From Gammaproteobacteria bacterium (GTDB lineage Bacteria; Pseudomonadota; Gammaproteobacteria; Eutrophobiales; Eutrophobiaceae), in the NCBI GenBank assembly GCA_965215365.1, contig CBDCDS010000003.1, forward strand, positions 632,383-696,382: a DNA stretch of 64,000 nucleotides. The letters are read 5' to 3'. Of this stretch, positions 1,738-56,451 are shown piece after piece. Both the position numbers and the translations under genes were made by a program. Within the stretch, counting starts at the first letter, position 1; each line of letters begins with the position of its first letter. Under the pieces are notes generated by a model, which worked only from the letters and a program-made list of their open reading frames with translations, was not told the DNA's origin and did not search any database.

Positions 1738-2553
1738 ATGTGGCGTCGTCGCAAGTCTATCAGTGACGCCGATTGGGTGGCCGCGCTGGACGCTGTTCCC
1801 ATGCTTGCCCCGCTTGCTGACGCTGAGCGCTTACAACTCAGGGAACTGTCTGCGCGTTTTATCGCCAGCAAATCCATTGAACCGGTGCGCGGACAGCGCC
1901 TCGATACGGCTGATCTTGTTGTGTTGGCCGCGCAAGCCTGCCTGCCGGTACTGGCCCTGGGTCTTGAGGCTTACGCCTCGTGGCAGAGTGTTGTGGTTTA
2001 TCCCGGCGGGTTTGTTGCGCGTGAACGCGAGGTGGACGAAGCCGGGGTCGAACACGAATGGGATGAGGCACGCGCCGGCGAGTCCTGGTTGCGCGGCCCG
2101 GTCATCCTGTCCTGGGAGGACGTTCTGGCCTCAGGACAAGGCGAGGGTTATAACGTCGTCATCCACGAGATGGCGCACAAGCTCGATATGCTCGACGGCG
2201 AGGCCAACGGCCGCCCGCCACTGCACCGGGAGATGGACGCAGAGCTCTGGCGCCGCGACTTCCGCGCCGCCTTCGACGACCTGAAACGTCGTATCGATGC
2301 CGGTGAGAAATCGGCAATCGATGACTACGCAACCACCGACCCCGGTGAGTTCTTTGCCGTGACCAGCGAGTATTTCTTTGACGCCCCCGGTGTGCTTGCC
2401 GACGAGTATCCGGCCGTTTATACGCGCCTGAGCGAATTCTATCGCCAGCGCCCACGCGCGCGCTTTGAGCGGTCAAAAGCAGTTTATCGTGAAAAGTTGC
2501 CGGGCAAGGGCAATAACAGTACCATTGACTCAGCTCATCCGCCCAGAAGATAA
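1738..2553 (+). CDS. mtfA: MtfA-like zinc-dependent peptidase (M90 family)
   Basis: HEMAHKLD zinc-binding motif. Length of 271 aa and overall sequence are typical of MtfA / DUF980. Confidence 0.65.
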   Translation: MWRRRKSISDADWVAALDAVPMLAPLADAERLQLRELSARFIASKSIEPVRGQRLDTADLVVLAAQACLPVLALGLEAYASWQSVVVYPGGFVAREREVDEAGVEHEWDEARAGESWLRGPVILSWEDVLASGQGEGYNVVIHEMAHKLDMLDGEANGRPPLHREMDAELWRRDFRAAFDDLKRRIDAGEKSAIDDYATTDPGEFFAVTSEYFFDAPGVLADEYPAVYTRLSEFYRQRPRARFERSKAVYREKLPGKGNNSTIDSAHPPRR

Positions 2554-5098: not shown

Positions 5099-5403
5099 AA
5101 CAAAGTAGAAAGATTATGCACAGTTATTTCCGGGACAGCACACTAGAGGTGGCCATTCAAGCGGATTTATGCCCTTGTGCGGGTGCCGACCAGAGTTTTT
5201 CCAGTTGGTAATAGTCTCTGGTATCGGGGTGCATGACGTGGGCAATGACGTCGCCGAAGTCGATCAGAATCCACTCTGCCTGCTGCCGGCCTTCCACACC
5301 CAGCGGTCTGATCTGCCGGGCCCGCGCCACCTCTATCACCTTGTCCGCAATGGCCTTGACCTGACGGTCGGAAGCGCCGCTAGCGATGATCATGTAATCG
5401 GTC
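5099..5403. repeat. 305-bp direct repeat (right copy) flanking the IS1634-like element
   Basis: Identical to 2901-3205. Confidence 0.85.
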
Positions 5404-5495
5404 ATGGGGCTCGATGCGCGTACATCGAAGGTCTGTATGTCCCGGGCTTTAAGGTCGTCCATGGTGGCGGCGAGCAGACGGGTGAGGCTGTTCAT
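5157..5495 (-). CDS. rsfS: ribosomal silencing factor RsfS (Iojap/YbeB)
   Basis: 112 aa with the Iojap-like sequence. Conserved position downstream of nadD, with a 4-bp overlap. Confidence 0.85.
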   Translation of the reverse strand: MNSLTRLLAATMDDLKARDIQTFDVRASSPMTDYMIIASGASDRQVKAIADKVIEVARARQIRPLGVEGRQQAEWILIDFGDVIAHVMHPDTRDYYQLEKLWSAPAQGHKSA

Positions 5496-6205
5496 GTGTA
5501 TAACTGGCGCTCCTTGATGTAAGCGTGGACGCCGGGGGGCAGGAGACGCTCTGCAGGCCCCGCTTCGTGCAGCAATGCGCGCGCCTGTGACGATGAAATA
5601 TCCGGGACTGTGAGCGCGGCGCGGTGGATACAGCCGGCCCGGCGCTCATGCAGGCGCGCCGCGTCAGGGCAGGCGCGCGCGTCATAATACTCGCGCAACG
5701 GTTCGCGCCAGGTCGTTGGCCGCGCCGCGCCCCGGTCGATGATCACCAGGTGTGCATGGTCGGTGAGCTCGCGCCAGCGGCGCCAGCTGGGCAGGGTGGC
5801 AAACGCGTCCGCGCCCAGGATGAAACAGAATGATTGCTGCGGCGCGGCGGCGCGCAGGCTGAGCAAGGTGTCGATAGTGTAGGACATCCCGCCCCGGTCG
5901 ATCTCGATGGCACTGGAGGTCAGTTGCGGATAGGGCCGCAACGCCAGTTCCAGCATGGCCAGCCGCGGCTGCGGCCCGGCGCTGGCAACGACTTTATGGG
6001 GTGGGATATGAGCCGGGATAAAACGCACTTCCTGCAGATCCAGGATGTCGAGACAGGCCCGTGCAATCTGAATATGAACGCTATGCACCGGATCAAAGGC
6101 GCCACCAAGCAAACCGATGGGCTTCCCTTCACTCACTGCCGGGCGTCTCGAAGGTGCTGTGAGCGGCGCTTTCAGGGGTTCCTTACTCTCTGATATGACC
6201 ATCAC
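5492..6205 (-). CDS. nadD: nicotinate-nucleotide adenylyltransferase
   Basis: [15 protein letters not shown] (the HxGH nucleotidyltransferase motif). Conserved synteny proA-nadD-rsfS. Confidence 0.85.
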
Positions 6206-7439
6206 CGATAACGATGAACTTCTGCGAGGTCAACCCTTCCAGCCCCACCGGGCCGCGCGCATGGAACTTGTCGGTGCTGATGCCGATCTCCGCGCCCAGG
6301 CCGTACTCATAACCGTCGGCGAAGCGGGTCGAGGCATTCACCATGACCGAACTGGAATCGACCTCGGCTAGGAAGCGCCGGGCGTGGGCCAGGTTTTCGG
6401 TGACAATGGCGTCGGTGTGCCTCGAGCCGTAGCGCGCGATATGTTGCAGCGCTTCATCGAGGCCGCTGACGACCCGCAACGACATGATCGGTGCCAGATA
6501 CTCCGTATAGTAATCCGCGTCGGTCGCAGCCGTTATCTGCGGCAGGATTTGCCGGGCCCGGGCATCGCCGCGTATCTCCACGCCGGCCTCAGCCAGCATG
6601 GGGCCGAGGCGCGCCAGCACGGCTTCGGCTTGCGCCTCTGCCAACAGCAGGCACTCCATGGTGCAGCAGGTGCCGTAACGCTGGGTCTTGGCGTTATAGG
6701 CGATGGTGACGGCCTTGTCCACATCCGCATGCGTATCCACATAGACATGGCAGACCCCGTCCAGATGCTTGATCACCGGCATTCTGGCCTCCTTGCTGAT
6801 GCGTTCGATGAGCCCCTTGCCGCCGCGCGGGATAATCACGTCGATATACTCGCTCAGGGTCAGCAGCTCGCCCACCGCGGCGCGGTCGGTAGTCTCTACC
6901 ACCTGCACCGCCGCGCCCGGCAGGCTGGCGTCCTGCAAGCCGGCGGCAATGGCGGCGGCAACGGCCTGATTAGAATTGATCGCCTCGGAGCCGCCTCTCA
7001 GGACGGTCGCATTGCCGGATTTTATGCACAGGCCGGCGGCGTCGGCGGTGACGTTGGGGCGGGACTCGTAGATAATGCCCACCACCCCCAGCGGCACGCG
7101 CATCCGCCCCACCTGAATCCCGGTCGGCCGATAGTTCAGATCCGTGACCGCGCCGATAGGATCCGGCAACGCCGCCACCTGTTGCAAGCCGTCAGCCATG
7201 GCCTCGAGGCGCGCCGGGGTCAACTCCAACCGGTCCAGCAATGGCGCCGCCAGCTGTTGTTCCCGCGCCGCGGCAAGGTCGGTGGCATTCGCTGCGAAAA
7301 TGGTTTCGCGGCGCGCTCGCAGATGTTCGGCCACGGCCGCCAGCGCAGCGTTTTTTGCGCCCGTGTCGGCGCGCGCCATAGCCCGCGCCGCGTCCCGCGC
7401 GGCGCGCCCCAGTGACTGCATATAATCCCGAATAGTCAT
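6183..7439 (-). CDS. proA: gamma-glutamyl phosphate reductase
   Basis: 418 aa. ProA/aldehyde dehydrogenase family sequence in the conserved position upstream of nadD. Confidence 0.85.
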
Positions 7440-11809: not shown

Positions 11810-12082
11810 CTATTCCGGCAGTTCGCCGACAGTCAGCACATCCTTGTTCTTTTCTATCAGCTTCGGCCCTATACCTCTTATGTCAGTCAATTCCTGTACC
11901 GACCTGAATCCGCCGTGCTGTTCCCGGTAGTCGATGATCCGCTCGGCGTAGGACGCGCCGATACCGCGCAAGGTCATCAGTGTATCCCTGTCTGCCGTGT
12001 TGATATCAATCATCCCCTCGGCAAACAGCGCGAGGGGCAGGCAGAGCAAGACAAGGGCTGTGAGTTTCCTGAATAGTTGCAT
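11810..12082 (-). CDS. comEA: ComEA-like helix-hairpin-helix DNA-binding (competence) protein
   Basis: 90 aa with a signal peptide and tandem HhH ([24 protein letters not shown] ... [15 protein letters not shown]). Confidence 0.8.
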
Positions 12083-12393
12083 AATGGTCTCCTTCAGTTA
12101 ACAGGTTTAAGTTCCGTGATCCTTATAACCACGCAGTAAAAAGAACCTCTGATTGCCAGAGGCGACCTGAAGTCTAGCAACAGCGCGCCGGTTGCACAGG
12201 AAAAAATTGGCAAAAATGTGGGAAAAGTCACATTTTTGCGAAAATTTTTGTGACGTTGTTCGTCTCGCACCCTTTGTGGGTCGATTTTGCCATCCACAAT
12301 GATGCTGATGCGACAGTTGTAATCCGCTTTGCGGACCTATCGAGCGCATACTGGCGAGCGTTATCTTCCTGGGCAGGCGACATAACGCAACGG

Positions 12394-12861
12394 TCAGCCG
12401 GCCGGATCCGCGGGAACGGCGTCCATGTCCAAGCGGGTTTCTATCCTGGCTACGCGTTCGCTTAGTGCGTACACCTGTTCTCGCAGAACGGCGATCTCTT
12501 CTCGCAGAATATCGATCTCGTCCCTGATGTCGGCAAATTGGGCTTGCATTTCCGCGCGCAGCTTGTTGATCTCGGTGTGCAGCTCGGTGCGCAAGTCGGT
12601 GCGCAAGTCGCTGATCTGTATTTGTATATCGCGCTGCAAACCCATGATAGCCGCATACAAAAACCCCTGGCTGGAGAGAATGGCTGCCAGCGCAATACCC
12701 ACCAGCCATTGCGCCTGCCGGAATTCACGCCAGCGCACCACATCATCGTCCGGGCGACCGGCGGGGCGGGACGTTACGCCCTGTTGGCGGACATCATCTG
12801 CAGGATTGGATGTATCGGGGCGCATGCCGTTCATAGTCGTTTCCATGAGTTTTACCTCCAT
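12394..12861 (-). CDS. hypothetical single-pass membrane protein with a long coiled-coil domain
   Basis: 155 aa with one TM helix (WLVGIALAAILSSQGFLYAAIMG) followed by heptad repeats. No recognisable family. Confidence 0.4.
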   Translation of the reverse strand: MEVKLMETTMNGMRPDTSNPADDVRQQGVTSRPAGRPDDDVVRWREFRQAQWLVGIALAAILSSQGFLYAAIMGLQRDIQIQISDLRTDLRTELHTEINKLRAEMQAQFADIRDEIDILREEIAVLREQVYALSERVARIETRLDMDAVPADPAG

Positions 12862-13323
12862 GGTGTTATTCGGTTCCTGTCCAGCGGTGCCTCACCGCCG
12901 ATCTTGTTTCAAAGTATAGCCGTGGGAGCAAAAATAGCAAGCATTTATTTGCGGCGCAAGTTTCACCTGCCACGGGCTGTTTACATCCCTGCCCCTAACC
13001 CGCAATCGTCCTGCATCAGGCCGGAACAGATCAGTAATACCAATGAACCGGTGCTACGGCGCATCACGGTAAAGGTTGGCGCTGACCCTGACAACACAGG
13101 ACGGGTTTATCAGGCGACCGGAGTAATCAGGGGGCTTCCAGTCTGTACACGATTGTGTTATAACGCTGAGGTATGCTGTGTACAACCTGTTTGTTTTCCG
13201 GTATGGCGCCGGGGTGTTGCGGTTATGCACAGGCAGTCAAGCGCATGTCAACATGGACAAACACCGTAAATAAAATATAAACTTTTGATTTATAAGTAAA
13301 AAAAACATAATCCAGAACTACTG

Positions 13324-14445
13324 TTGCCCTATAAACACAATACTATGAATATAACCTTAAATAGAGAACAACTGTTACCTGCCTTGTCTGATCTGAATGG
13401 TGTTGTTGAATCCAGGCCGGCCTTGGCAATTCTGGCCAATGTCCTGATCAATATTTCGCCCCAGGAAATCAGGCTGACGACAACAGATATGGAAGTTGAA
13501 CTTTCCGAAGCTATCCCAGGCGAGTTTGGAGAAACGGGGGAAATTACTGTTCCGGCGCGCAAGCTCTTGGACATTTGCCGGACTTTGCCGGAAGCCGCCG
13601 AGATCGCACTGACAGTTGAGGACGAACGGGTAAATGTGGCCTCTGGCAGAAGCCGATTCTCCTTGTTGTCACTGCCGGCACAGGAGTTTCCGAGAGTGGA
13701 ACCCGGCCAGACCGACGTCAGTTTTTCGTTATCGCAGGCGGTGTTCAAGTCGTTGCTGGAGCGTACCGCCTTTGCCATGGCTAGGCAGGATGTGCGCTAT
13801 TACCTGAATGGAGTCCTGTTGGAGGCGGAGGCAGGGCAGCTGCGCGCGGTCGCCACGGACGGACACCGGCTGGCCCTGTGTGAAGTTGACATTACGTTTC
13901 CCGCGGAGGAGAAAAAACAGTTAATCATGCCAAGGAAAGGCGTCATGGAGCTGCTGCGCTTGCTGCATGACTCGGAAGACGAGGTGGAAATCGTCATGAG
14001 CGGAAATCATATCCGCATTGTCAGGGGCGACCTGATCTTCACCAGTAAACTGATAGACGGCAAATACCCGGATTACAACCGGGTCATCCCGGCCCCGGCC
14101 CAACAGCCCGTGCTGGCCCAACGGGAGATATTGAAGCGGAGTCTCGGCCGCGCCTCAATACTATCCACCGACAAATACCGGGGGGTGAGAATAACGCTGG
14201 AAGAAAACAAACTCAGCGCAAACGTCCACAATCCTGAACAGGAACAGGCCGAGGACGAGATTGACGTCGAGTATTCGGGAGAGAAGCTGGAAGTCGGCTT
14301 CAACGTGAGTTATCTGCTTGACGCAGTCAGTATTATTCAGACCGACAAGGTAAAACTTTCCATCTCATCTCCGAAAAGCGGCTGTCTGGTATTGCCTGAG
14401 GAAGGCGAAGGGTGCAAGTACATCGTCATGCCGTTGATGCTTTAA
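13324..14445 (+). CDS. dnaN: DNA polymerase III beta sliding clamp (true start probably ATG at 13345)
   Basis: Full-length DnaN-like sequence (LSLLSLPAQEFP etc.). No dnaA is present upstream. Confidence 0.9.
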   Translation: MPYKHNTMNITLNREQLLPALSDLNGVVESRPALAILANVLINISPQEIRLTTTDMEVELSEAIPGEFGETGEITVPARKLLDICRTLPEAAEIALTVEDERVNVASGRSRFSLLSLPAQEFPRVEPGQTDVSFSLSQAVFKSLLERTAFAMARQDVRYYLNGVLLEAEAGQLRAVATDGHRLALCEVDITFPAEEKKQLIMPRKGVMELLRLLHDSEDEVEIVMSGNHIRIVRGDLIFTSKLIDGKYPDYNRVIPAPAQQPVLAQREILKRSLGRASILSTDKYRGVRITLEENKLSANVHNPEQEQAEDEIDVEYSGEKLEVGFNVSYLLDAVSIIQTDKVKLSISSPKSGCLVLPEEGEGCKYIVMPLML

Positions 14446-14493
14446 CCCGCATATCTCACCAAGTCACTTGTTTTAACACTGCTATCGCAGCCG

Positions 14494-15582
14494 ATGCGCA
14501 TTGAATGGCTGCACATCCGAAACGTTCGTAACCTGTCGGAACTGAGGTTAGAGCCGGCCGCCGGGCTTAACCTGATCTGTGGCCCGAACGGTAGCGGCAA
14601 GACGGCGCTGTTGGAAGCTATCTATTTTCTGGGGCGCTGTCGCTCATTTCGCACTGCCGCCATACAGCGGGTTATCCGCAACCAGCAACGCGCATTGCAG
14701 GTCAGCGCCGGATTGCTGCTTACCGATCAGCGTCGAATTGTTACGGGGGTGGAGCGCAGCCGGACGGCGCTCGATATCCGTTACAACAACACCACTGTGC
14801 ACAAGGTGTCCGAACAGGCAGCGCAGCTCCCCGTTATTACAATTATTCCGGAAAGCCACAGACTGGTTTCTGGCAGCCCGATATACCGCAGACGCTGGTT
14901 GGACTGGGCCATGTTTCACGTGGAACCACACTATATCAATCTCTGGCGGGACTATTACAAGGCGTTAAAACAGCGCAACAGCTTGCTTCGCTCGAACAGG
15001 GTCGAACAACTGGGTGCATGGGAACAAGCCATGGCGCGTGCCGCAGAAGCTATGACCGCACAGCGTACCGGCTTTATCGACGAACTGGCGGTGGCTATGA
15101 GCGCAGCCGCCCGGCGCTTGCAGATTGCACAAACTACGCTGGAATATGAGTGTGGTTGGCAGGCAGACACTGAGTTAGCCTCATTCCTCGCAGAGCAACG
15201 CAAAGGCGATCAGGAAAGAGGCACAACGCGACAAGGACTGCACCGCAGCGATATGACCATCCACCACGAGGGGAGGGAAGTCGGGCATTTTTATTCACGC
15301 GGGCAGATTAAGCTGTGCATTATTGCACTGTCGCTGGCCCTGGATAGTGTGTTCAGGAAGCGCACCGGGCGCATCCCGCTGATCTTGGCGGACGACCTGC
15401 CGGCGGAGTTGGATCAGAACAGCTTGCTGCGCGTTGTGGATGGATTGGCCGGGCAGGGGAGTCAGGTTTTCATCACTTCAACAGACTCGATTCCGGCAGT
15501 TTCACAGCATCCGCTAAAATTGTTTCACGTGGAACAGGGGCAGATTACCGACTCGGTGTTGTCCGGGTTCAGAAACAAGTGA
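14494..15582 (+). CDS. recF: DNA replication and repair protein RecF
   Basis: Walker A GPNGSGKT. RecF family; conserved position after dnaN. Confidence 0.9.
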   Translation: MRIEWLHIRNVRNLSELRLEPAAGLNLICGPNGSGKTALLEAIYFLGRCRSFRTAAIQRVIRNQQRALQVSAGLLLTDQRRIVTGVERSRTALDIRYNNTTVHKVSEQAAQLPVITIIPESHRLVSGSPIYRRRWLDWAMFHVEPHYINLWRDYYKALKQRNSLLRSNRVEQLGAWEQAMARAAEAMTAQRTGFIDELAVAMSAAARRLQIAQTTLEYECGWQADTELASFLAEQRKGDQERGTTRQGLHRSDMTIHHEGREVGHFYSRGQIKLCIIALSLALDSVFRKRTGRIPLILADDLPAELDQNSLLRVVDGLAGQGSQVFITSTDSIPAVSQHPLKLFHVEQGQITDSVLSGFRNK

Positions 15583-15613
15583 GACTCGAATAGACAAAAA
15601 ATCGGGTAGTGAA

Positions 15614-16045
15614 GTGTGTAAAGTGATTTCGATTAACTTACACAGGAGGACTACCCGATGCAGATCAAAAGGTAAGCGGGTGAAATCATATCGCAGTTGG
15701 CGCGTGGATGATACTACCGATGCTGACGCGCGCGGTCGTTTGAAGCAGTTGGAATGGGTTGCGACGTTACGCGAGGATGGGTGTGGTGAGGCGACGGCAC
15801 TGGCAGCAGTAGGTGGGTCGAGGGCGACCTACAACGGCTGTGTAGAACGCGCCAATGCCACCAGCCGCTATGAGTTCTATCCGTTCTACGAGGGTCCACT
15901 GACCGTGGCGGCCATCAACCGCAAACTGGCCGAGTATCAGCAATACTACAATACCTACCGCCCGCATGACGGTATTGGTTTATTAACCCCAATGGAGTAT
16001 TATCAACAACTCACACAGCCTGCCTCTGAGTCTCATATGTATTGA
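15614..16045 (+). pseudogene. integrase-core (rve) transposase C-terminal fragment, IS3/IS481-type
   Basis: Ends with ...YYNTYRPHDGIGLLTPMEYYQQL, a typical rve C-terminus. The N-terminal part is not transposase-like and there is no DDE N-terminus. Confidence 0.55.
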
Positions 16046-16060
16046 ACCTGGACAATCCGG

Positions 16061-16440
16061 TTGACACAGCATCAGCCGCAGTCCATACTGGCCGTACTAT
16101 GTCCGCTAAGTTTATCTGGCTCAATCTCGCCGGTTTGGGCCGTGACGGGCAAGATCGGCGCGTTCTTGCTGGTGTGGGGTTTCATTATTTGTCCGCTCAT
16201 TGCCATCAATGACTTAGCGCGATTGCTGGACAACATACTACACAGATGGGACGAGTAACCCAAATACTGCTGTGGATCAGCGTGGCCCTGGTGGTGGTCT
16301 GGCCGGCGCTGTTCCTGATTGTGCTGTTGGTGTGGGGATATATCATCTTGCCGATCATCCTGTTGCGGCTGCTGTATCTCTGGTGGCGGTTGCTGGTGGA
16401 CGGCCCCTCAGCCCTCGGCCAGCCGCACGAGCTCCCGTGA
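16061..16440 (+). CDS. two tiny overlapping hydrophobic ORFs (65 and 64 aa), hypothetical membrane peptides
   Basis: Hydrophobic composition only. Could equally be non-coding. Confidence 0.15.
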
Positions 16441-16647
16441 CACCACGTTGAGTTGACCGAGCAGGCGCGGGCCCGGGCGGATGTGCAGCCAGCGACACAG
16501 CGCTAACGCCTGCTCGTAGTCCAGACCGGCCACGCCGCCCAGCGGTAAGGTGTGGATGACGGCGGGGGCGCCCTGTATCAGGATGCGGATGGCATCGTGA
16601 TTGACCGGCAGCACATCGCAATCCTCGCCTCCCCACCAGGCCTGCAC
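16408..16647 (-). CDS. gpT-like frameshift extension of the tail assembly chaperone (G/GT arrangement)
   Basis: 79-aa ORF in a different frame directly after the gpG-like ORF. Contains a G..GLDYEQALALCRWL segment resembling the conserved GT-extension region. Confidence 0.4.
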   Translation of the reverse strand: MQAWWGGEDCDVLPVNHDAIRILIQGAPAVIHTLPLGGVAGLDYEQALALCRWLHIRPGPRLLGQLNVVSRELVRLAEG

Positions 16648-16655
16648 CGCCGCCG

Positions 16656-17000
16656 TCAGTTTCCCAGGGCGCGCGCCTCACCGAGTACCGCTCCGATATA
16701 CGCCGTGACCACCGCCGTGCGCACCCGCGGACGGGCGGTGAGCAGGTCGCGATTCGTCTCATTGAACGCCAGCGCCTTGCCGGCGGAGTCGGTTACATCG
16801 TCCCAACCAATCAGCACCCGGTTGACCAGGGCAATATCCGCGCGCGGCGCATCGAGCAGCGCATCGAGCTCAGCTTGCGTGAGCTCGACAAAGCGGGCGG
16901 TAAAGGTCTGCTTGTCGTGACCACTGCCGCCCGGCGCGGACACGCTCACCGGCATGGTGAACTCGCTGCTCTGCTCGGGTGTCAATAATTTTAATGTCAT
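16656..17000 (-). CDS. phage/GTA tail assembly chaperone, gpG-like
   Basis: 114 aa. Position and size are typical of gpG. Immediately followed by a gpT-like ORF in the -1 frame. Confidence 0.45.
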   Translation of the reverse strand: MTLKLLTPEQSSEFTMPVSVSAPGGSGHDKQTFTARFVELTQAELDALLDAPRADIALVNRVLIGWDDVTDSAGKALAFNETNRDLLTARPRVRTAVVTAYIGAVLGEARALGN

Positions 17001-17350
17001 GTGCTATACTCCTGATTATGTGTCGTGCTCTGATACTCACCGCTCTGCTCACGCTGCCCGTAGTGGCGCTGGCGCACGAGCCCCACTGGTTGCCGCCGGC
17101 GCCCTGGGGTGTGAATCCTTGTGATCTGCCCCGGGTGCGGTGCCCGCTGGCACTGATCAATATCCATGATAATCTGGTCTTAGCGCAACGGCGCCAGGAC
17201 ACCACGCAAGAGCGTTACTGGCTGGACCGGCTGGCGGGGTGGTACGCTTACAACCCCGACTACCGCCACCACCTGCATCCGCACCGCTAGACCGCCGGGT
17301 CTTATTCGTTGTTCCTCCCATGGCCCCGAAGCCGTCCCGGCGGCGGTGCG

Positions 17351-17924
17351 TTATGTCGCCTGGCCGTTGATGATCAAGGCCGGGCCGCTGGGCGGCTGTA
17401 AAATCTCGGCATTGAGTTGCAGCTGCTGCTCGGCGCTACGCCCGGCGGCTTTCATGGCCGCCTCGCCGGCGGGCGAGATGGCGCACAGCGGCGCATAATA
17501 GTCATTGCCGCGCCCGAAGGCGGCGGTCTCAAGATAGCGCACCCCGCGCCGGATTTGGCGCACCTCGCCGGTGATGGCCTGCTCGACGGTACCCGCCACC
17601 GGCGTGTAGGTCACTTTCAGCACATTGTCGGCCTTAATCTTGCCGCCCGGCTCAATGTACAGCCGGGCGCGCGCAGCGTCTAAGGTGTAATCGTCACCGG
17701 CCTTGGCCATCTTGCTCGCCGCCGATGGAATCGCCCAAGTAGCGCTCGCCGATGGGCGCATCGGCGTCGCTCAGGTCAACGAGGTAGAACTCGCCGGCGC
17801 CGATGATGATGTTCGATTTGCCATGTTTGTCTGTGGCTAAGCTCATAGTGTGTCTCCTAGGTCGGGTGGCTCTGTAACAGTCGTTCGCTCTGATAGCGTT
17901 GGCCGTACCACACCACGCCGGCAA
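17351..17924 (-). pseudogene. phage/GTA major tail protein-like gene disrupted by a frameshift
   Basis: Two overlapping ORFs in different frames (17694..17924 and 17351..17761), beta-rich tail-tube-like sequence, upstream of the chaperone pair. Confidence 0.35.
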
Positions 17925-18467
17925 AGTGTTCCGGGCCGACGATCCGATCTGGAAAACCCACTACCCGCCGAACGGGTTCGGCTGCCGCAGCCGACGAGCT
18001 GGGCAAGATCAGTGTCCCCAAACTGGAAGGGGCGCCACCGGCTATCGCCCGCCCGCACGTGCAGGACGCGCTGGATTATGGCGAGGTGTTGATTGACCAG
18101 CCGGAATCTTATGAAAGGCAAGGCAAACGTCACACGCTGATCGCCTATTACGAGGATGACGGCTGGTGGCGACACGTCATCGAAGTGCGGCACAAGCAAC
18201 TGCTGCTGCTGACAGCATTTCGAGACGAATATTCTGATATACGCACCGAGGATGTACTGCGCCGCCCGGGCCTGGTGACCGTGAGAGACTGGGACGAGAA
18301 CCGCTGGCGGGACAGACCGAAAGAGAGTGGGAAGTGAAGCATGGAAGGCGAATATCTCCACGGGCTCCCCGGCACAATCCGCTATGGATAGCCGGGTTCT
18401 ACGGTAAATCTGTACTCTACCTCACTTCCCAGAGTGCAGTATAACACAAAATGAAAACAGAACGTAA

Positions 18468-19991
18468 CTACTCGCCCCCCTTACCCTGATCTCTTGTTCT
18501 GATCTGGTTTTTCTTAACCGTTTTATTTTTGAGCGGTTTTTCCACCATGGTGGCGGCGTCTCCCTTGAGTGCTATCTCGATGGCGGCGAGGGGATTGTAG
18601 CCCTTCAGGGTCATAGACTGCAAGTAGCTGGAGATGCGGCAGTAGGTGTCGGCGTAGGCGGTGGTTCGGAAGCAGCCGGAGACTTTTTGTTTGACTTTAG
18701 CCATACGGATATCGCGTTCGGCGCGGTTGTTGGTGAACGGCACGTTGGGGTCGCGGGCGAAGCGGAGGACTTCGGTTTCGTACTTGACGAGGGCATCATG
18801 GAGGTTTTGTGCCTCACATTGGGCAATCCGTCCGCGTTGGCCGGTGAGCCGTTTCGGGGGTGTGGGGAGTTCCCGTTTGGCTTGTGTCAGGATAGTCCGG
18901 TAGCGGGTGCGCAGGGACTGGTAGTCGGTCTCGCTGAGTGCCTTGTTTTTATGTGTGCGCACCTGTCGGCAGGTCTTGAGCAGGAGGCGGCTCATACGTT
19001 GGGCCCAGGCATGGCCGTGGGCGTCCTCGATAAAGGCCAAGTTACGCAACAGGTGACTGCCGCACAGGGCATGCTCGCAGTTGTCATAGGCGAAGTAGCT
19101 GGCCCAGCGGTCGTGCACGAGAACACCGCCGTAGCGGGGGACGATGCCGATGTCCTTGAGGGCGTCCCCGCCCCGCTTGCGGTGGCAGTGTTTCAGTACC
19201 AGGTTCCCGGCACTGGTGCTGTGCAGCCAGTGTTGTGTGCGGTCGATGCGCAAGGAGGTCTCATCGGCGTGCAGCACGGGCTCTGTGAGCAGGCGGGCGA
19301 TAGCCGCCCGCTCCCACCCGGCCAGGGCCTCATGCACCCGCGTGAGCCAGGCCAGTAAGGTCGCCTCGGCGACGGCGCGCCCGGTCAGTGCATGAAGTGT
19401 CTGCGCCGTACGTTTGAGCGAGAGCATTTGGGCCGTTAACAGGTGCGTGGCGAAAGCCACGATGCCAGGGCCGTATTGTAAAGGCCCCGGCATGTCATCG
19501 GGAAACGCCCCGTGGGTCTCAGTGCCACAGCGCGGACAGGTTTTTATCTCGGCGTCAATGGTCAACTCGGTCGTCTCGAAGACTATATCGACCTTGACTC
19601 GTCGCACATGGCCGGTGGGGGCGGTGCCTTTGAGATCATGCCCGCAGGCCCGGCAGCCGGTCACGGGCACCGTGCGGGTCTGAGCCACCACGCGCCGGGA
19701 CGCGCTGGGCACCGTCCCGGTCTGCGGCCCCTTGCCCTGCTTGCCGGGCCGTGTGCGCGCACTGTCATCGGGGTCGGTGCGGGAACTGGGCAGGCTGGAG
19801 TTGTGCGCCCCCTTCGGTGTGGTCTTCTCTAAGAACACCGCCAGCAGCAACTCGAATAGCAGCAACATCGACTCGAACAGCGCACGCCCTTCGGGACTCA
19901 GCGCGCCGTCGGCGCACAACGCCTTAAAACGCATTCGGATGGCCTCGAACTCCGCACGCAATGAGGCCTTGTTCACCGTGGCCATGTGCAC
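18468..19991 (-). CDS. IS66-family transposase (TnpC-type)
   Basis: 507 aa with HADETSLRI, CGSHLLRNL and NNRAERDIRMAKVKQKVSGCFRT, the hallmark IS66 TnpC motifs. Confidence 0.85.
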   Translation of the reverse strand: MHMATVNKASLRAEFEAIRMRFKALCADGALSPEGRALFESMLLLFELLLAVFLEKTTPKGAHNSSLPSSRTDPDDSARTRPGKQGKGPQTGTVPSASRRVVAQTRTVPVTGCRACGHDLKGTAPTGHVRRVKVDIVFETTELTIDAEIKTCPRCGTETHGAFPDDMPGPLQYGPGIVAFATHLLTAQMLSLKRTAQTLHALTGRAVAEATLLAWLTRVHEALAGWERAAIARLLTEPVLHADETSLRIDRTQHWLHSTSAGNLVLKHCHRKRGGDALKDIGIVPRYGGVLVHDRWASYFAYDNCEHALCGSHLLRNLAFIEDAHGHAWAQRMSRLLLKTCRQVRTHKNKALSETDYQSLRTRYRTILTQAKRELPTPPKRLTGQRGRIAQCEAQNLHDALVKYETEVLRFARDPNVPFTNNRAERDIRMAKVKQKVSGCFRTTAYADTYCRISSYLQSMTLKGYNPLAAIEIALKGDAATMVEKPLKNKTVKKNQIRTRDQGKGGE

Positions 19992-20665
19992 TGTGCCTCC
20001 ACCGCCATCATCGCCGCCAGCACCGCCAGCCGCTCGGCCGGGGGCAAGTCACGATAACGCCGCCCCCAGTTCTCAGCCTTGCGCTTGACCTGCTGGCGGT
20101 GCGTGAAGTTGCGCCCCGCATAGCGCACCCAGTGCACCCGGTCCGGCACAAAATTGAACCAGACCCGCTCGGTCACCACCCCGCCCTGATTCATCACCTG
20201 CAAGGACACACTGCGCCAGCCCGCCAGCACCTCATCATACAAGGCCGAAGGATACCCCGACACCATCACCGCACAGGGCAGCCCCTGCAGTAACGCCAGC
20301 AGCGCCTCATGGTCTGAGTCCTCGTAGTCATACCGGTAACGGTGCCGTGACTTGCGCGTGCTGTGCAGGTAGGGCGGGTCGCTGTACACCAACTCCGTGC
20401 CGTCAAACGGAAAAGTCGCCAACCAGCGGTGACAACACCCCTGCACCAACTCCACCGGATACCCACACGTAAACCCCGCCAACGCCCGCACATCAAGATC
20501 AATCCCAATGTTGCGCAACGCCGCCGGCTTGCGCTGCATAATCGCCCCGCCGCCTAAGTGTGTCTCAATGTACACACTGTGCGGCGGCATCATCGCAATG
20601 AGCGGCTGGCACAGACCCGTCGTGGCTTTCGACCCTCGGTACGCATTCCCCATGACGACCAACAT
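19973..20665 (-). CDS. D12-class N6-adenine DNA methyltransferase (Dam-like), cargo of the IS66 element
   Basis: Motif I-like YIETHLGGGA and motif IV DPPY. 230 aa. Overlaps the transposase start by 19 bp. Confidence 0.65.
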   Translation of the reverse strand: MLVVMGNAYRGSKATTGLCQPLIAMMPPHSVYIETHLGGGAIMQRKPAALRNIGIDLDVRALAGFTCGYPVELVQGCCHRWLATFPFDGTELVYSDPPYLHSTRKSRHRYRYDYEDSDHEALLALLQGLPCAVMVSGYPSALYDEVLAGWRSVSLQVMNQGGVVTERVWFNFVPDRVHWVRYAGRNFTHRQQVKRKAENWGRRYRDLPPAERLAVLAAMMAVEAQCTWPR

Positions 20666-20817
20666 AACGCCATGACGCTATGTTGTCAAGGACGCCTTGA
20701 CAAAAAATTCAGTAGAATTAGAGGGAGGGGGCGAGTAGTTACAACAGAACAATTCATACCAGTAAGTATATCACGGCGGTCTGTTTTGTGGTCAGTTTGG
20801 GTAAGTATTTGATACAG

Positions 20818-21669
20818 TCAGACTTTTTCAAACAGGGTCAGGCTTAATATCTGTAATATTGTGTAGAGTTCGGTAGGCAGATCGAGCCGTTTTTTGATGA
20901 TGGCGACCAAGACATAAACGCCAATAGCGGTCCGGATTTGGGTTTTCACAGCATTCTCAGAGGTGCCGAAGAAGGCCTTGATACGCAGGTGTTGTTTGAT
21001 CCATTTGAAGAACAACTCGACCTGCCACCGGCAACGATACAAATCGGCAATGGTGACGGCCGGCAGGGTCAAGTTGTGGGTGAGGAACACCCGTGTTTTG
21101 CCGGTGTTGGCATCGTGATAGCGGATACGACGCAGGGTGTCGGGATAGCGCGGTGCGGAGCGTTGGCCGGTCAGCACGCCGGTCTGGTCGATGCGGCGGG
21201 AGTAGCGGCGCGCAAACTTGAGGTTGGACTTGGCTCGGATTACGAACAAGGCCGAGGCTAAGGTGAGGCCATGCAGTCGTTCGAAGTCGAGGTAGGCACG
21301 GTCCATGACGTAGAAGGCGCCGGGCTCGGGGATAAGCAGGTCGAGGGCATTGACATCGTGCAGTTTACCGTCGGAGACATGGATAAAGGCGGGGATACTG
21401 CCTTGTAAGTCCAGTAAGGTATGCAGTTTGATGGCGGCCTTGGTCTGTCGGAAGTGCGCCCAGGGGAATACGGACAGGCACAGGTCGACCTCGATATCGC
21501 GCAGGCTCTCGCGGTGGGTGAGTTGGGCGAAGGCCAGGCATAGGAACTGGTCAAGACAGGTAAAAGACTTGACGTAGCGATTGCCGTGGTAGCGTTGGAC
21601 GCAGCGGCGGAAAGTGTGCATGGGCAAGTGGGCCATGAGTTGTGAGAAGACGAAATTGCCGGTATACAT
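20818..21669 (-). CDS. DDE transposase, IS4/IS5 superfamily (DDE_Tnp_1)
   Basis: 283 aa with ...DRAYLDFERL... and YRCRWQVELFFKWIKQ (the catalytic E/K region). Confidence 0.7.
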   Translation of the reverse strand: MYTGNFVFSQLMAHLPMHTFRRCVQRYHGNRYVKSFTCLDQFLCLAFAQLTHRESLRDIEVDLCLSVFPWAHFRQTKAAIKLHTLLDLQGSIPAFIHVSDGKLHDVNALDLLIPEPGAFYVMDRAYLDFERLHGLTLASALFVIRAKSNLKFARRYSRRIDQTGVLTGQRSAPRYPDTLRRIRYHDANTGKTRVFLTHNLTLPAVTIADLYRCRWQVELFFKWIKQHLRIKAFFGTSENAVKTQIRTAIGVYVLVAIIKKRLDLPTELYTILQILSLTLFEKV

Positions 21670-21884
21670 GGGGCTGCACTCCTTGGTTATGAATGGGAGT
21701 CACAGCATGGCAGTCAGGGTCGGTGGAGTTCAAGTCGATGACAGGCATAAAACGACTGTTTATTAAGTTGTATCAATGAGTTATGATGCACGAACAAGGT
21801 TTTCTTGGGACACTAGTGAGGCGGCCTCTAAAAATCAGGGAATTATATACGATAGCGCCGAACCGCTATCAAGACCGATATTGG

Positions 21885-22514
21885 TTACTCCGGCTCAAAT
21901 CTTTGCAGGAATGCAAGCGCATTTTTCAAAAAGTCCTTGCCATTGCGGAATCTCCCCAACCCTGTATTGCAACTATCGCAAACATAATCCCTTGCATCTC
22001 CAGTTAAATGTCCATGATCTAAAACAATCTTGACGGTTACCCCCACTATGCCGTCTTTTTCACATATAGGACAACGCCAGAACACTCCTATTGGGGGCTT
22101 ATAAGGAACAGAGCCATCTTTACGCTTCGCATGATTGCGCACGCCGTCAATGCCCCTTCTGCAATCTACGCAGGTAGGACGATATATCGTTGAACCATCC
22201 TTCCGAGTTTGGTTTGCATCGAAATGTTTTAACGCTTTAAGGGTAAAACACTGATTACAGACTTTTTCAATTTGATCTTTTGGCTTCAATCCTACATGCT
22301 TCATAAACTCGCGCTGACGGGCGCTGATTTGAATAGGATATTCCTCTGGAGCAAAAGGCTTAACCGCATCTGTCGGTAAAACTTGCACGCGTCCACCCAA
22401 TGGAATTTTAACTTCGACCCCTCGGTCTGTGCGTTTTTGCACCATTGCCAACCGCCCATCAGCAACAATGACAACCCATTCAGGGGGCTGCTCTGGCGGT
22501 TCATTTGATGTCAT
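21885..22514 (-). CDS. HNH/Endonuclease VII-fold nuclease; putative type II restriction endonuclease
   Basis: C-terminal CPICEKDG...LDHGHLTGDARDYVCDSCNTGLG matches the CxxC...DHxHxTGxxRGxxCxxCNxxLG signature of phage T4 Endo VII-like HNH nucleases. It overlaps the upstream MTase gene by 4 bp (ATGA). Low GC. Confidence 0.55.
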   Translation of the reverse strand: MTSNEPPEQPPEWVVIVADGRLAMVQKRTDRGVEVKIPLGGRVQVLPTDAVKPFAPEEYPIQISARQREFMKHVGLKPKDQIEKVCNQCFTLKALKHFDANQTRKDGSTIYRPTCVDCRRGIDGVRNHAKRKDGSVPYKPPIGVFWRCPICEKDGIVGVTVKIVLDHGHLTGDARDYVCDSCNTGLGRFRNGKDFLKNALAFLQRFEPE

Positions 22515-23293
22515 GCGGTTGCTGCCATGATCTGGTTTCCCAGCCTGGTTTTTGCAATGTCAATGTATTCCTCGGATATATCAATGCCGATCCAATCACG
22601 ACCGTTATAAGCTGCCATTTTGCAAGTTGTGCCTGACCCGCACATCGGATCAAATACCAGATCGCCGGGATTCGTCCACGAAAGGATATGATCTTCGGCC
22701 AGCTTTTCTGGAAATACTGCCGGATGATTAAATGCTATTTTGTCCCTTGTGGTTCCTCCCAGACCAACCGCATAAGCCCATATATTGGTCCTGGTCTTTT
22801 CTTTCTTTAATTCTTTCAGCACTTTGTTATTGACCGCATCCGGGCCCTTGTTGTGAACCATCATTTCGTAGCCGTTGCGGACTGTTTTTTCCTTAATCGG
22901 ATTGAATGTATCAGGTGACCCTTTGGAAAATACAAACATGAACTCGTGACAGTTAGTGTAAGCGTTGCTGCGCATGAAAGGTGTATTTTTCTTCTGGTAA
23001 ATCATCACGTCATGGACGCGGAATCCCAAAGCCTGGAAAAACAGCGCTTGCTTCATACTGGTCAGCGTCCTGCCGCCATGACCATTTATCTTGTCACCCA
23101 CGACCCAAACAACCACGCCTCCTTCCTTCGTGACACGAAACAGTCCTGCCGCTATATCTTCAAATGGAAATGAATAACCCTGGTAATTCCTCAAATTGTC
23201 ATACGGCGGCGATGTGACAGTTAAATCAACCATGCCCTCATCCATGGCGGCCATAATTTTCACACAGTCGCCCGTGTAAAGGTGGTTTCTCAT
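22511..23293 (-). CDS. DNA methyltransferase (beta-class N4-C/N6-A; TSPPY motif IV precedes FDPMCGSGTT motif I)
   Basis: 260 aa with TSPPYDNL and FDPMCGSGTT in permuted order, typical of beta-class amino-MTases. Low GC. Translationally coupled to the nuclease gene. Confidence 0.75.
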   Translation of the reverse strand: MRNHLYTGDCVKIMAAMDEGMVDLTVTSPPYDNLRNYQGYSFPFEDIAAGLFRVTKEGGVVVWVVGDKINGHGGRTLTSMKQALFFQALGFRVHDVMIYQKKNTPFMRSNAYTNCHEFMFVFSKGSPDTFNPIKEKTVRNGYEMMVHNKGPDAVNNKVLKELKKEKTRTNIWAYAVGLGGTTRDKIAFNHPAVFPEKLAEDHILSWTNPGDLVFDPMCGSGTTCKMAAYNGRDWIGIDISEEYIDIAKTRLGNQIMAATA

Positions 23294-23327
23294 GCGATCA
23301 GGTTCTCATAATTCAGGGCGCGTTGCT

Positions 23328-24338
23328 TCAACGCGACTGCGGGTAGTGGTCTCGAATCAGTGATAACAAGCGGGTGGCATCATCTGTTGCCTCCCATTCA
23401 TTATCCTCATTGACCACAATCAGCTCGGTTTTGTTACCGACACCAGTCAGGCTGATTTGCCATGAACCGGACGCGTTGCTGGCATTTTTCTCACGCGTTT
23501 GTCCACTTGCGCCGAGCTGATAGGCACCCTGTTCCGAGTCGCTGCCGGTTACCTGCAGACCACTGTTTTGTAAGGCAATTCCGGTGTTCTTCCAGGCCTG
23601 TTCAAAGGCTTCGGGAATGGCCAGATACATTTTGCCGTCACCGGCATCGACTACCCGTAAGGCACCATCAGCGCCAGTTTGGGAAGCACCTGCCCCCGGC
23701 TCATCGACAGGCGCGGCCGGCGCCGGTGTTGCGGCAGGTTCACCGGCGCCAAGGAACCGGGCGAGCTCGGCAGCAAATAGTCTTTCCTGTTCCTGGTCTT
23801 GGTCTTGCTCGAGCCAGTCGGCATTGTCATCAATTCGGGTTTGGCGCAGTTGGCTGATGACCAGCGTTGAGCTGTCCGGCGTGCCGCCGGCTTCGGCAAA
23901 AATTTTGTATTTGTAACGATACTGCAAGCCAGCCTGTTGTTCGGTCGCAGACCAACCGGTCTCCAGCACCCCCAGCTCACTATCGTCAAGCTCAACAGAG
24001 TAATTTTCCGAGGCAATAAACTCAAGCAAGCGCGGCCACAGCTGTTGTGTTGACATCGGCAGGGTCAACCACTGTTCGCCTGTTTCGGTGCTGCCCGAAG
24101 CAATATCGGGGCCGCCGGGCGCGCGCGGATTTTTATAACTGGACAACGTGACCGGTGCCTCGCCCGGTATGTTCATGGAATCATTGATAGCATTGGCGGT
24201 CAAATCCGGCGGGATTTCCAAATCCGGCATGCTCTCGCTTTTCTTGTACTCGCTCTTTTTGTCGGGCAGGTACGCGCAAGACGCTAGCAGAGACAGGCCC
24301 GACAGGATGGTTGCAAGAGTTAAAACAGGTGTTTTCAT
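23328..24338 (-). CDS. bamC: outer membrane protein assembly factor BamC (NlpB) lipoprotein
   Basis: Lipobox LLASC, 336 aa. Conserved position downstream of dapA. Confidence 0.75.
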   Translation of the reverse strand: MKTPVLTLATILSGLSLLASCAYLPDKKSEYKKSESMPDLEIPPDLTANAINDSMNIPGEAPVTLSSYKNPRAPGGPDIASGSTETGEQWLTLPMSTQQLWPRLLEFIASENYSVELDDSELGVLETGWSATEQQAGLQYRYKYKIFAEAGGTPDSSTLVISQLRQTRIDDNADWLEQDQDQEQERLFAAELARFLGAGEPAATPAPAAPVDEPGAGASQTGADGALRVVDAGDGKMYLAIPEAFEQAWKNTGIALQNSGLQVTGSDSEQGAYQLGASGQTREKNASNASGSWQISLTGVGNKTELIVVNEDNEWEATDDATRLLSLIRDHYPQSR

Positions 24339-24400
24339 AACAGACCTCTGGTTGGTATTGCGTGTTCATACAAGGGGCATCCCGCTCAGGAGCGGCCCTG

Positions 24401-25297
24401 TCAAATCACCTCTGCTTGTTGCATGGCCGCTTCAACCCGAGCATGGAGCTCTTCGGAAAGCCAGGTCATGGGCAGGCGGATGCCGTTTTCGATCAGGCCG
24501 AGCCGTTGCATGGCCCACTTGGTCGGTATCGGGTTGGATTCAAGAAACAGCGATTGGTGCAAGCCCAGCAGTTTGGTGTCTAAAGCCTTGGCTGCGTCCC
24601 GGTTACCGGCGCGCGCCAGCCGACACAGTTCGTGCATTGCCGCCGGCGCCACATTGGCCGTGACGGAAATCACCCCATCGCCACCCATCAGCATAAAATC
24701 ACAAGCCGTCTCATCATCGCCGCTGAGCAGCAGAAAGTCCTCGCCACAGGTTGCGCGCAGCGCGCAGACCCGGTCCACCTCGCCGGTTGCTTCCTTGACC
24801 CCGATGATGTTATCGACCTGCGCCAGCCGGGACACGGTTTCAGGCAGCAGGTCGCAAGCCGTGCGCGCCGGCACATTGTAGAGCAGCTGGGGAATGGAGA
24901 CACTATCGGCAATCACCTTGAAGTGTGCATACATACCGGCCTGGGTCGGTTTGTTGTAGTACGGCGTCACCAGCAAACAGGCGTCGGCGCCGGCTTGTTG
25001 TGCATAGGCCGTCAACTCGATAGCCTCGATCGTTGAGTTTGCGCCGGTACCGGCGATGACCGGCACGCGCCCGTTGACGACCTCCACAACCTGTTTGATG
25101 ACCCGGCAGTGTTCATCCGGCATCAACGTTGCTGATTCGCCTGTTGTGCCTACGGCAACAATACCGTCCGACCCGTTGTCAATGTGGAATTCGACCAGCT
25201 GCGCCAAGGCGTTGAGGTCCAGCGGCGCATCCGGGGCGACGCCCCCCTGCATGGGGGTGATGATGGCAACTAGGCAGCCTGAGAACAGATCTTTCAT
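24401..25297 (-). CDS. dapA: 4-hydroxy-tetrahydrodipicolinate synthase
   Basis: 298 aa, full DapA-like sequence (GTTGE, YNVP). Confidence 0.9.
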   Translation of the reverse strand: MKDLFSGCLVAIITPMQGGVAPDAPLDLNALAQLVEFHIDNGSDGIVAVGTTGESATLMPDEHCRVIKQVVEVVNGRVPVIAGTGANSTIEAIELTAYAQQAGADACLLVTPYYNKPTQAGMYAHFKVIADSVSIPQLLYNVPARTACDLLPETVSRLAQVDNIIGVKEATGEVDRVCALRATCGEDFLLLSGDDETACDFMLMGGDGVISVTANVAPAAMHELCRLARAGNRDAAKALDTKLLGLHQSLFLESNPIPTKWAMQRLGLIENGIRLPMTWLSEELHARVEAAMQQAEVI

Positions 25298-25319
25298 ATT
25301 CTTTGATATTGCATAAGAT

Positions 25320-25385
25320 CACCTCTCACAAACACGAGGTGACTGTGCAGCACAGGGATGTGTTGCCAGTAACTGCAATCATGTC
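25320..25385. repeat. REP-like hairpin (CACCTCTCACAAACACGAGGTG) plus adjacent conserved module
   Basis: The same hairpin recurs at 27971-27992 and, as its complement, at 55985-56006. Confidence 0.7.
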
Positions 25386-25450
25386 AGTGGCCTGTTAAGT
25401 GCCCCTATAGCGGAATCCGTGTATAATACACCAGTTTAAGCCGCCGTGCA

Positions 25451-26014
25451 TTGGCCCTGTTTGACTGCCTGATCCGGATTTCAATAATGATACAATTCCT
25501 TGCGCTGACCGTTATTGGTAAGTATGACCTTGCCCTGCCGGAACGGTTGACCGGCGTTATCGCAGAATCAGGATGCAATATCCGGGAAAGTCGGATCACC
25601 ATACTCGGACAGGAGTTTTCCATGCTGTTGCTGCTCGCCGGGAACTGGAACGCGGTGGTCAAGGTTGAGGACGCGCTGGGCCGGCTGGGGCAGGAACAGG
25701 ATTTATCCGTCAGTATGCGCCGCACGGAATTGGACAAGGCGGAAAAGAATCTCATGCCTTATGCCATCGACGTAGTATGCAGCGATCGTGTTGGCGTGGT
25801 CAACCGGATAACCCGTTTTATCCTGGACAATGGCATCCAGATTCGGGATTTATCCACAACCACCTACGAAGCCTCGCATACCGGCACCGAGATGTTTTCC
25901 CTGCACCTGACCATTCACGTGCCGGTGGAGATATCCATTTCCTCATTACGCAACGACTTTCTGGAGTTTTGCGACCAGTTGAACCTGGACGCGATTATTG
26001 AACCGGTGAAATGA
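25451..26014 (+). CDS. gcvR: glycine cleavage system transcriptional repressor GcvR (tandem ACT domains); likely start near 25487
   Basis: ACT-domain protein in the conserved dapA-gcvR-bcp arrangement. Confidence 0.7.
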   Translation: MALFDCLIRISIMIQFLALTVIGKYDLALPERLTGVIAESGCNIRESRITILGQEFSMLLLLAGNWNAVVKVEDALGRLGQEQDLSVSMRRTELDKAEKNLMPYAIDVVCSDRVGVVNRITRFILDNGIQIRDLSTTTYEASHTGTEMFSLHLTIHVPVEISISSLRNDFLEFCDQLNLDAIIEPVK

Positions 26015-26033
26015 CGAACACGGCACTATTTCT

Positions 26034-26077: not shown

Positions 26078-26080
26078 ATC

Positions 26081-26380: not shown

Positions 26381-26397
26381 CTAAGGGTGACGCGACT

Positions 26398-26871: not shown

Positions 26872-26880
26872 CCCGAACCT

Positions 26881-56448: not shown

Positions 56449-56451
56449 TCC

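Follow-up and report, generated by a model that had tools for sequence, protein, structure and literature searches.

Chromosomal replication origins (oriC) that are unlinked from dnaA, and origins that lie beside dnaN, are both well known. In Bacillus subtilis, oriC occupies the spacer between dnaA and dnaN, in Escherichia coli it lies beside mnmG (gidA), about 40 kb from dnaA, and cyanobacterial origins are found beside dnaN, with dnaA elsewhere. E. coli also carries the DnaA-reactivating sequences (DARS) DARS1, between bioD and uvrB, and DARS2, between rppH and mutH, as well as datA, a site of DnaA-ATP hydrolysis and titration. Here, a 64-kb stretch of DNA from an uncultured gammaproteobacterium of the Eutrophobiaceae (contig CBDCDS010000003.1; the whole stretch is called the window) is described, in which dnaN and recF stand together without dnaA, the 185 bp directly upstream of dnaN form a candidate oriC, and a non-coding element between rpmE and engB resembles DARS. 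The account preferred here, with a probability of roughly 65%, is that dnaA was lost from the side of dnaN long ago, that the origin on the dnaN side was kept, and that later rearrangements reshaped the region, which now also holds a DARS-like site.

One genome per bacterial species was scanned with the DnaN of the window, which gave 27 loci; all genomes compared are metagenome assemblies. Fifteen loci (L001-L015) form a close set of uncultured Gammaproteobacteria with 70-96% identical DnaN, and twelve (L016-L027) form a distant set with 44-51% identical DnaN, used as outgroups. In all twelve distant loci dnaA is immediately upstream of dnaN. It is not in that place in the window, nor does it occur within 10 kb of dnaN in any of the 15 close loci, and a tblastn search of the window with two DnaA proteins as queries (E<=10) found neither dnaA nor a remnant of it. 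Profile scans confirm dnaN and recF as intact genes, and the presence of this pair without dnaA, first noticed in an earlier interpretation made from the letters of the window (the sequence-only reading), stands. Every close locus that reaches far enough to the left has the same order as the window, with proA-holA-lptE-leuS-comEA on the minus strand next to dnaN-recF on the plus strand, and the comEA(-)|dnaN(+) junction is common to 15 of 15 close species-level genomes. The split between dnaA and dnaN therefore goes back to the ancestor of a lineage with 15 or more species and is not recent damage by insertion sequences (IS) or prophages. The sequence-only reading had taken the missing dnaA for a break in the ancestral cluster unless relatives shared exactly this order; at the comEA|dnaN junction they do share it, and a recent break is refuted there.

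Neither an IS element nor a dnaA remnant was found at the comEA|dnaN junction. The spacer of about 480 bp and the divergent coiled-coil open reading frame (ORF) ahead of dnaN were correctly described before. Aligned with its nearest relative, L001 (about 89% identical in nucleotides), the window is homologous from comEA to about 12360 and again from 13160, and between these points it has about 800 unique bases vs about 215 bp in L001; in other relatives the middle of the comEA-dnaN spacer measures 0.2-7.7 kb. A tblastn search found no counterpart, in any relative, of the 155-aa ORF carried by the unique segment. dnaA was not replaced by this ORF, and the segment is an insert in a variable part of the spacer. 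A 153-bp repeat around the resB/ccsB junction of the window (37968-38119) has a 96%-identical copy in L001 (9662-9814), in the variable middle of the comEA-dnaN spacer, where small elements apparently tend to land.

General features of oriC are an unwinding element, an R1-type DnaA box adjacent to it and a flanking gene that is transcribed away, and for the gammaproteobacterium Thioalkalivibrio sulfidiphilus a manual method has placed the predicted oriC between dnaA and dnaN (bioRxiv 10.1101/2025.08.05.668638). All three features are present in the conserved module at 13160-13344 (Table 1). As in B. subtilis-type origins, dnaN reads away from the AT-rich element, beyond which the R1-type box follows; read with dnaN on the left, this box has the correct orientation (TGTGCATAA, and TGTGGATAA in most relatives). 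The strong box lies 37 nt past the weak one, the AT-rich tract starts 34 bp past the strong box, and dnaN starts 20 bp past the tract. The tract is found at the same place in relatives, and the boxes keep their positions at -122 to -132 and -167 to -178 before dnaN in 11 genomes. The single DnaA-box-like 9-mer that the sequence-only reading saw before dnaN is correct at one mismatch (TTATGCACA, 13223); the weaker box, conserved in the clade, had been overlooked.

The parS sites add to this anatomy. A scan of the window that allowed up to 2 mismatches, with 0.07 sites expected, returned only two, both within recF, and a parS at the 3' end of recF is present in 15 of 15 clade loci and in several outgroups. 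GC skew was read locally, in the window and the fetched loci: its cumulative curve has a minimum at 12-13 kb of the window, and in L003-L014 skew and gene strand both flip at comEA|dnaN. In the outgroups with dnaA-dnaN, the 200-250-bp spacer between the two genes holds two to four boxes and at most one lies upstream of dnaA, the exception being a Legionellales locus (L021) with a box cluster upstream of dnaA. Before dnaN, these outgroups carry a reverse box followed 25-45 nt later by a forward consensus box, and the pair of the clade stands at -170/-125. Since the dnaA-dnaN spacer of the outgroups shows the same box pair, the module of the clade appears to be the dnaN-side part of that spacer, and 13160-13344 is probably an oriC inherited from it.

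The resemblance to origins in dnaA-dnaN spacers thus lies in the box pair and in the reading direction of dnaN. Unlike those origins, the candidate locus of the clade has neither dnaA nor any boxes upstream of dnaA, keeps only two conserved boxes and has comEA as its neighbor. With E. coli it shares the separation of the initiator gene from the locus where the initiator probably acts, in a different lineage; an origin placed as in E. coli, ahead of mnmG, is improbable here, the mnmG spacer of relatives being 55-180 bp long and free of a box cluster. Cyanobacterial origins, again of a different lineage, are alike in that dnaN is the landmark gene and dnaA lies apart. A strand bias of KOPS-type (FtsK-orienting polar sequence) GGGNAGGG motifs was also looked for and set aside, the sites being too few and their polarity unclear.

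Table 1. Features of the window, with the E. coli DARS cores for comparison
Feature	Position	Strand	Remarks
Conserved dnaN-proximal module, candidate oriC	13160-13344	+	185 bp; from the clade alignment
Weak DnaA box TGTGTACAA	13177-13185		TGTGAACAA or TGTGGACAA in relatives
Strong near-consensus DnaA box TTATGCACA	13223-13231		Perfect TTATCCACA in most relatives
AT-rich putative unwinding element	13266-13325		82% AT, more than any other 60-mer of the window
parS-like site GGTTCCACGTGAAACA	14912-14927		One mismatch; inside recF
Perfect parS TGTTCCACGTGAAACA	15521-15536		3' end of recF
Conserved non-coding DARS-like element	34066-34400	+	In the 561-bp spacer of the convergent genes rpmE and engB
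DARS-type core	34140-34174	+	Box I TTATCCACA, TTTTC, box II TGTGGATAA, CTT, box III TGTGGATAC
Fourth DnaA box TTATGCACA	34346-34354	-	About 180 bp from the core, in conserved block GATCTGTGCATAA
E. coli DARS1 core			Box I TTATCCACT, ATTCC, box II TGTGGATAA, CCA, box III TGTGTATTA
E. coli DARS2 core			Box I TTATTCACC, TTTTC, box II TGTGGATAG, AGT, box III TGTGAAGAA
ComEA-like helix-hairpin-helix gene	11810-12082	-	TIGR00426/PF12836; directly left of dnaN in L001-L015
CRP-type palindrome TGTGGGAAAAGTCACA	12216-12231		About 135 bp upstream of comEA
Window-specific insert	12360-13160	-	About 800 bp; carries the 155-aa ORF; alignment with L001
155-aa coiled-coil/transmembrane ORF	12394-12861	-	Weak coiled-coil-type Pfam matches only
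dnaN (DNA polymerase III beta clamp)	13345-14445	+	TIGR00663, 350 bits; all three beta-clamp Pfam domains
recF	14494-15582	+	TIGR00611, 322 bits
IS-rich island	15552-23300		Absent from L001 and L002 at the same junction
rve_3 (IS3-IS481) integrase-core fragment	15614-16045		143 aa; after recF
IS66 transposase	18468-19991
IS4 fragment	20818-21669
Endonuclease VII/His-Me and DNA methyltransferase pair	21885-23293
Relocated chromosomal block between recF and gyrB	23300-42762		recF and gyrB adjacent in L003-L015; bamC, dapA, ACT-domain gene, bcp, AI-2E transporter, ctaA, ctaB, rpoH, AAA_22 ATPase, rpmE, DARS-like element, engB, cytochrome c, resB, ccsB, dsbA, pyrophosphate-dependent phosphofructokinase, bepA
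bepA	41256-42749		Profile scan
gyrB	42769-45210	+	Followed by comF and bioB-bioF-bioC-bioD, as in relatives with gyrB directly after recF
mnmG (gidA)	60602-62494	+	Within ORF 60470-62494; likely true start 60602

The second element of interest was found by its DnaA boxes. A scan of the 64-kb window for TTATCCACA with at most one mismatch gave 24 matches and one cluster only (34140-34354), composed of a perfect box at 34140, a perfect box on the opposite strand at 34154, and boxes at 34166 and 34346. What defines a DARS core is that boxes I and II face opposite ways across 5 bp and that boxes II and III have the same orientation (PMC6868365). At 34140-34174 boxes I and II are likewise opposed and 5 bp apart, boxes II and III point in the same direction 3 bp apart, and box II has the full consensus; box order, orientation and the 5/3-bp spacing are identical to those of both E. 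coli DARS1 and DARS2. The pattern TTATNCAC-N6-TGTGGATA-N4-TGTG has one match in the window vs 0 expected, and in about 0.8 Mb of fetched loci it occurs only in the elements of the clade and in the two E. coli DARS sites. Four more genomes of the clade, reached through EngB homologues 67-98% identical to that of the window, carry the 38-bp core TTGTTATCCACATTTTCTGTGGATAACTTTGTGGATAC without any change, and several blocks flanking it are also conserved. Over L028-L034 the element keeps its nucleotide sequence even though EngB is only 67-92% identical. One conserved block, TATTTCAA(A/T)TAGTTAG, resembles the IHF consensus with one mismatch.

Because the box trio matches the E. coli DARS cores and the pattern is otherwise unmatched, 34066-34400 is read as a DARS-type element, whose function would follow by analogy. 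The likeness to DARS2 extends to an identical TTTTC spacer and a further DnaA box about 180-200 bp off, and outside the core there is no alignable similarity to it. The window element differs from both E. coli sites in its position at rpmE/engB, in having near-consensus sequences at all three core boxes and in its host, which is far from the Enterobacterales. With datA it shares the character of a non-coding DnaA-box cluster near the origin with an IHF-like site, but datA lacks the head-to-head box I/II trio at 5/3 bp that the window element shares with DARS. Rfam and tRNA scans of the window returned nothing, and no known RNA gene explains the rpmE-engB spacer. Between the element and the 3' end of engB lie GC-rich, hairpin-forming blocks (34440-34560; CCCCGGTCTTCCCAACCGGG; GGCCCCGG...CCGGGGCC), which are kept in L029, L030 and L033, are absent in L031 and have no Rfam match.

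Different in age from the loss of dnaA is the gap between recF and gyrB. Thirteen relatives (L003-L015) have the order dnaN-recF-gyrB-comF-bioB-bioF-bioC-bioD, which equals positions 13.3-15.6 kb of the window joined straight to 42.8-50.2 kb. In the window gyrB does not follow recF directly; the interval is 27.2 kb, gyrB lying behind bepA and mnmG another 15 kb on, as had been described before, and the recF|gyrB split is derived. The window, L001 and L002 have recF followed by bamC-dapA and onward through rpoH. In L001 and L002 the recF-bamC interval is 0.5 kb or less and has no IS island, so that in the window the IS elements were inserted at an existing break or later, and the island did not necessarily cause the recF|gyrB break. 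The proposal of the sequence-only reading that an ancestral cluster was broken up, with IS and prophage remnants at the breaks, thus holds for recF|gyrB, which is derived and has mobile remnants, and fails for dnaA/dnaN. The transposase fragment that it placed after recF is an rve_3 fragment, an internally deleted copy of an element that is intact (334 aa) in a conspecific strain.

Genes are rearranged very readily in this group. In three relatives the rpmE-engB part is found 76-270 kb away from dnaN and in opposite orientation, vs 21 kb from dnaN for the DARS-like element in the window; in one of these, L001, the part from rpmE to bepA is 270 kb away and inverted, and bepA is not beside gyrB. 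The bepA|gyrB junction is found also in L028 and L030. In a 99%-identical strain mtfA, a toxin-antitoxin module, hsdR...hsdM and mnmG are contiguous, whereas the window has 47 kb, including dnaN, between mtfA and hsdR. In relatives (L038, L040) mnmG is normally preceded by genes for hydantoinase B and MtfA, both of which are at the left end of the window (1-2553). This 47-kb, dnaN-bearing difference is either a very recent large rearrangement or a difference of assembly.

From these gene orders we infer the following sequence of events. dnaA would have parted from dnaN once, in the common ancestor of the lineage, through a break that fell in what had been the dnaA-dnaN spacer, a little ahead of its DnaA boxes; this break joined comEA-leuS-lptE-holA-proA to the left of dnaN and retained the dnaN-proximal 185 bp. 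This module is most likely still the chromosomal origin: DnaA expressed from another locus would attach to the boxes, melt the AT-rich tract and bring about helicase loading, while ParB, bound to the parS pair in recF, would move the daughter origins apart; through these boxes DnaA may also regulate the transcription of dnaN-recF. The sub-lineage to which the window belongs would later have had about 19.5 kb of ordinary chromosomal genes moved in between recF and gyrB, and the genome of the window would have received a 7.75-kb IS-rich island at the recF junction. The relocated block would have brought the DARS-like element to within 21 kb of dnaN, where, by analogy with E. coli, it could strip ADP from ADP-DnaA and so yield active ATP-DnaA.

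Other explanations account for parts of these observations. It is possible, although rather unlikely, that the origin moved away with dnaA and that the module upstream of dnaN is merely a DnaA-regulated promoter and leader for dnaN-recF. Such a role would suit one strong and one weak box, a spacer whose middle tolerates insertions of 0.2-7.7 kb, and a dnaN that needs its own promoter once severed from dnaA; boxes before dnaN also occur in outgroups, wherever their origin may lie. It would not lead one to expect the extreme AT-rich tract of the window abutting the strong box, the origin-type skew and strand flip or the parS sites within recF, and it sits uneasily with the nearest outgroups, whose dnaA-dnaN spacer is richer in boxes than the region ahead of dnaA, and with the published oriC prediction in the same spacer of a related gammaproteobacterium (bioRxiv 10.1101/2025.08.05.668638). 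Several points nevertheless weigh against an origin at dnaN: the conserved DnaA boxes before dnaN are just two, one of them weak; the gap of about 34 bp between box and AT-rich tract compares with roughly 20 bp (about two helical turns) usual for R1; the skew flip coincides with the gene-strand flip, so that the effects of replication and transcription are not cleanly separable; per-gene skews are noisy (about +/-0.08), and per-gene GC3 (third codon position) and all-position skew, compared for replication against transcription, are suggestive and noisy; L037, 348 kb away, lacks the predicted skew sign; and dnaA was not located, so that an origin may lie beside it elsewhere. The AT-rich tract next to the DARS-like core likewise leaves some room for an origin-like reading of that site. 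Indeed, the first interpretation of the cluster at 34.1 kb was that it is the true oriC rather than a DARS-type site, with four near-consensus boxes, two of them perfect, within 215 bp, in a non-coding and strongly conserved element that adjoins the second most AT-rich tract of the window. This interpretation was rejected as improbable: both neighboring genes read towards the element, against the rule of transcription away from an origin, three relatives show no skew flip there, both flanks having the same sign, and the three boxes have the order, orientation and spacing of a DARS core. Moreover, the AT-rich flank is conserved as specific blocks and not as base composition, and the element lies anywhere between 21 and 270 kb from dnaN and parS, depending on the genome.

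Very little credit is due to a recent breakage of the whole dnaA-dnaN-recF-gyrB cluster, the dnaA-dnaN link included, by IS elements or prophages in this genome. The IS and methyltransferase remnants directly after recF, the derived state of recF|gyrB and the different large-scale order of the 99%-identical strain at IS-flanked junctions all invite such a view, which is very improbable given that 15 species-level genomes have the identical comEA|dnaN junction, even where DnaN identity drops to 70%, with neither IS nor dnaA remnant, and that L001 and L002 carry recF|bamC without the IS island. Hardly credible at all is an assembly artefact, in which a chimeric metagenome contig was joined at repeats: the data are all metagenome assemblies and the window and the 99%-identical strain do differ at IS or repeat boundaries, but the key junctions turn up again in assemblies made independently by separate projects (comEA|dnaN in 15, recF|bamC in L001 and L002, bepA|gyrB in L028 and L030).

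As for dnaA itself, tblastn against the 40 fetched loci detected it in outgroups only, and in none of the relatives examined does it lie within 10 kb of dnaN, the DARS-like element or mnmG; for mnmG, these are the clade loci L037 and L038, the sister-group locus L039 and the conspecific strain L040. In the outgroups mnmG is close to rpmH-dnaA. The alternative that dnaA lies just outside the window does not apply to the first 8.5 kb or so on the right, as judged by collinearity with the 99%-identical strain, in which mnmG is followed by an AAA_14 gene, rsmG, parA and parB. Exact-sequence look-ups with the MnmG (two starts), MtfA and EngB of the window gave no match. Since consensus DnaA boxes are strictly conserved, the lineage would be expected to possess a canonical DnaA.

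The question of where oriC is gets a plausible answer in the 185 bp before dnaN, and both the IS-driven dispersal and the origin puzzle raised by the sequence-only reading are largely explained. What is new here is a gammaproteobacterial clade without the dnaA-dnaN link, in which a candidate dnaN-side origin module is kept and a DARS-like box trio occupies a new locus. The dnaA-dnaN link, which is very stable in Gammaproteobacteria, can thus be lost with the dnaN-side module retained, and the DARS-type box trio occurs far outside the enterobacterial relatives in which DARS was defined. Origin finders keyed to dnaA or to DnaA-box counts would mis-place the origin in this lineage, probably at the rpmE-engB cluster; comEA|dnaN with parS in recF is the more likely landmark. 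A more far-reaching and doubtful suggestion is that chromosome replication throughout the lineage starts at a minimal origin of two boxes, which stayed at dnaN when dnaA moved away, with parS in recF and a DARS-type element that is free to move. If so, the element, only 21 kb off and inverted here compared with 76-270 kb in relatives, could alter the timing of initiation, and the group would offer a natural experiment in which initiator gene, origin and DnaA-recycling site are uncoupled. The differences in large-scale order even between 99%-identical strains also matter for the binning and scaffolding of metagenome-assembled genomes.

Regarding the remaining genes, dnaN and recF are both intact and, as in the canonical cluster, recF directly follows dnaN, after 48 bp; an in-frame TTG at 13324 lies ahead of the dnaN start at 13345. 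To the left of dnaN, proA, holA, lptE, leuS, the ComEA-like gene and the 155-aa ORF are all on the minus strand. The CRP-type palindrome upstream of comEA is kept as TGTGAGAAAACTCACA in L002, L003, L005, L008, L013 and L014; it probably belongs to the comEA promoter, not to the origin, and its conservation suggests a competence-type promoter. The mnmG ORF begins with a 44-codon N-terminal extension (60470-60601) without a match to the MnmG model, and the ATG at 60602 is probably the true start, while the database entry of a sister strain holds the long form of 674 aa.

Between bioD and mnmG lies a low-GC island (50209-60458; 46-52% GC) in which type I restriction-modification genes (hsdR, hsdS, hsdM) are interleaved with toxin-antitoxin modules, HigB/HigA-like in the window and called as MNT/HepT in the 99%-identical strain. 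A repeat of about 250 bp is present at 26077-26384, 31686-31931 and 31926-32255, with two copies in tandem upstream of the AAA_22 gene, and elsewhere in L028 (375-623 and 9756-9856) and L040 (16202-16356); because synteny between strains breaks off where copies of it lie, the repeat may be a mobile element of small size. The AAA_16/AAA_22 ATPase gene, of about 400-440 aa, is found at 32449-33759 in the window, at 5372-6655 and 8493-9770 in L028 and at 5895-7106 in L029; it is placed differently among close genomes, stands beside an IS481-like transposase in L028, and behaves like a part of a mobile element.

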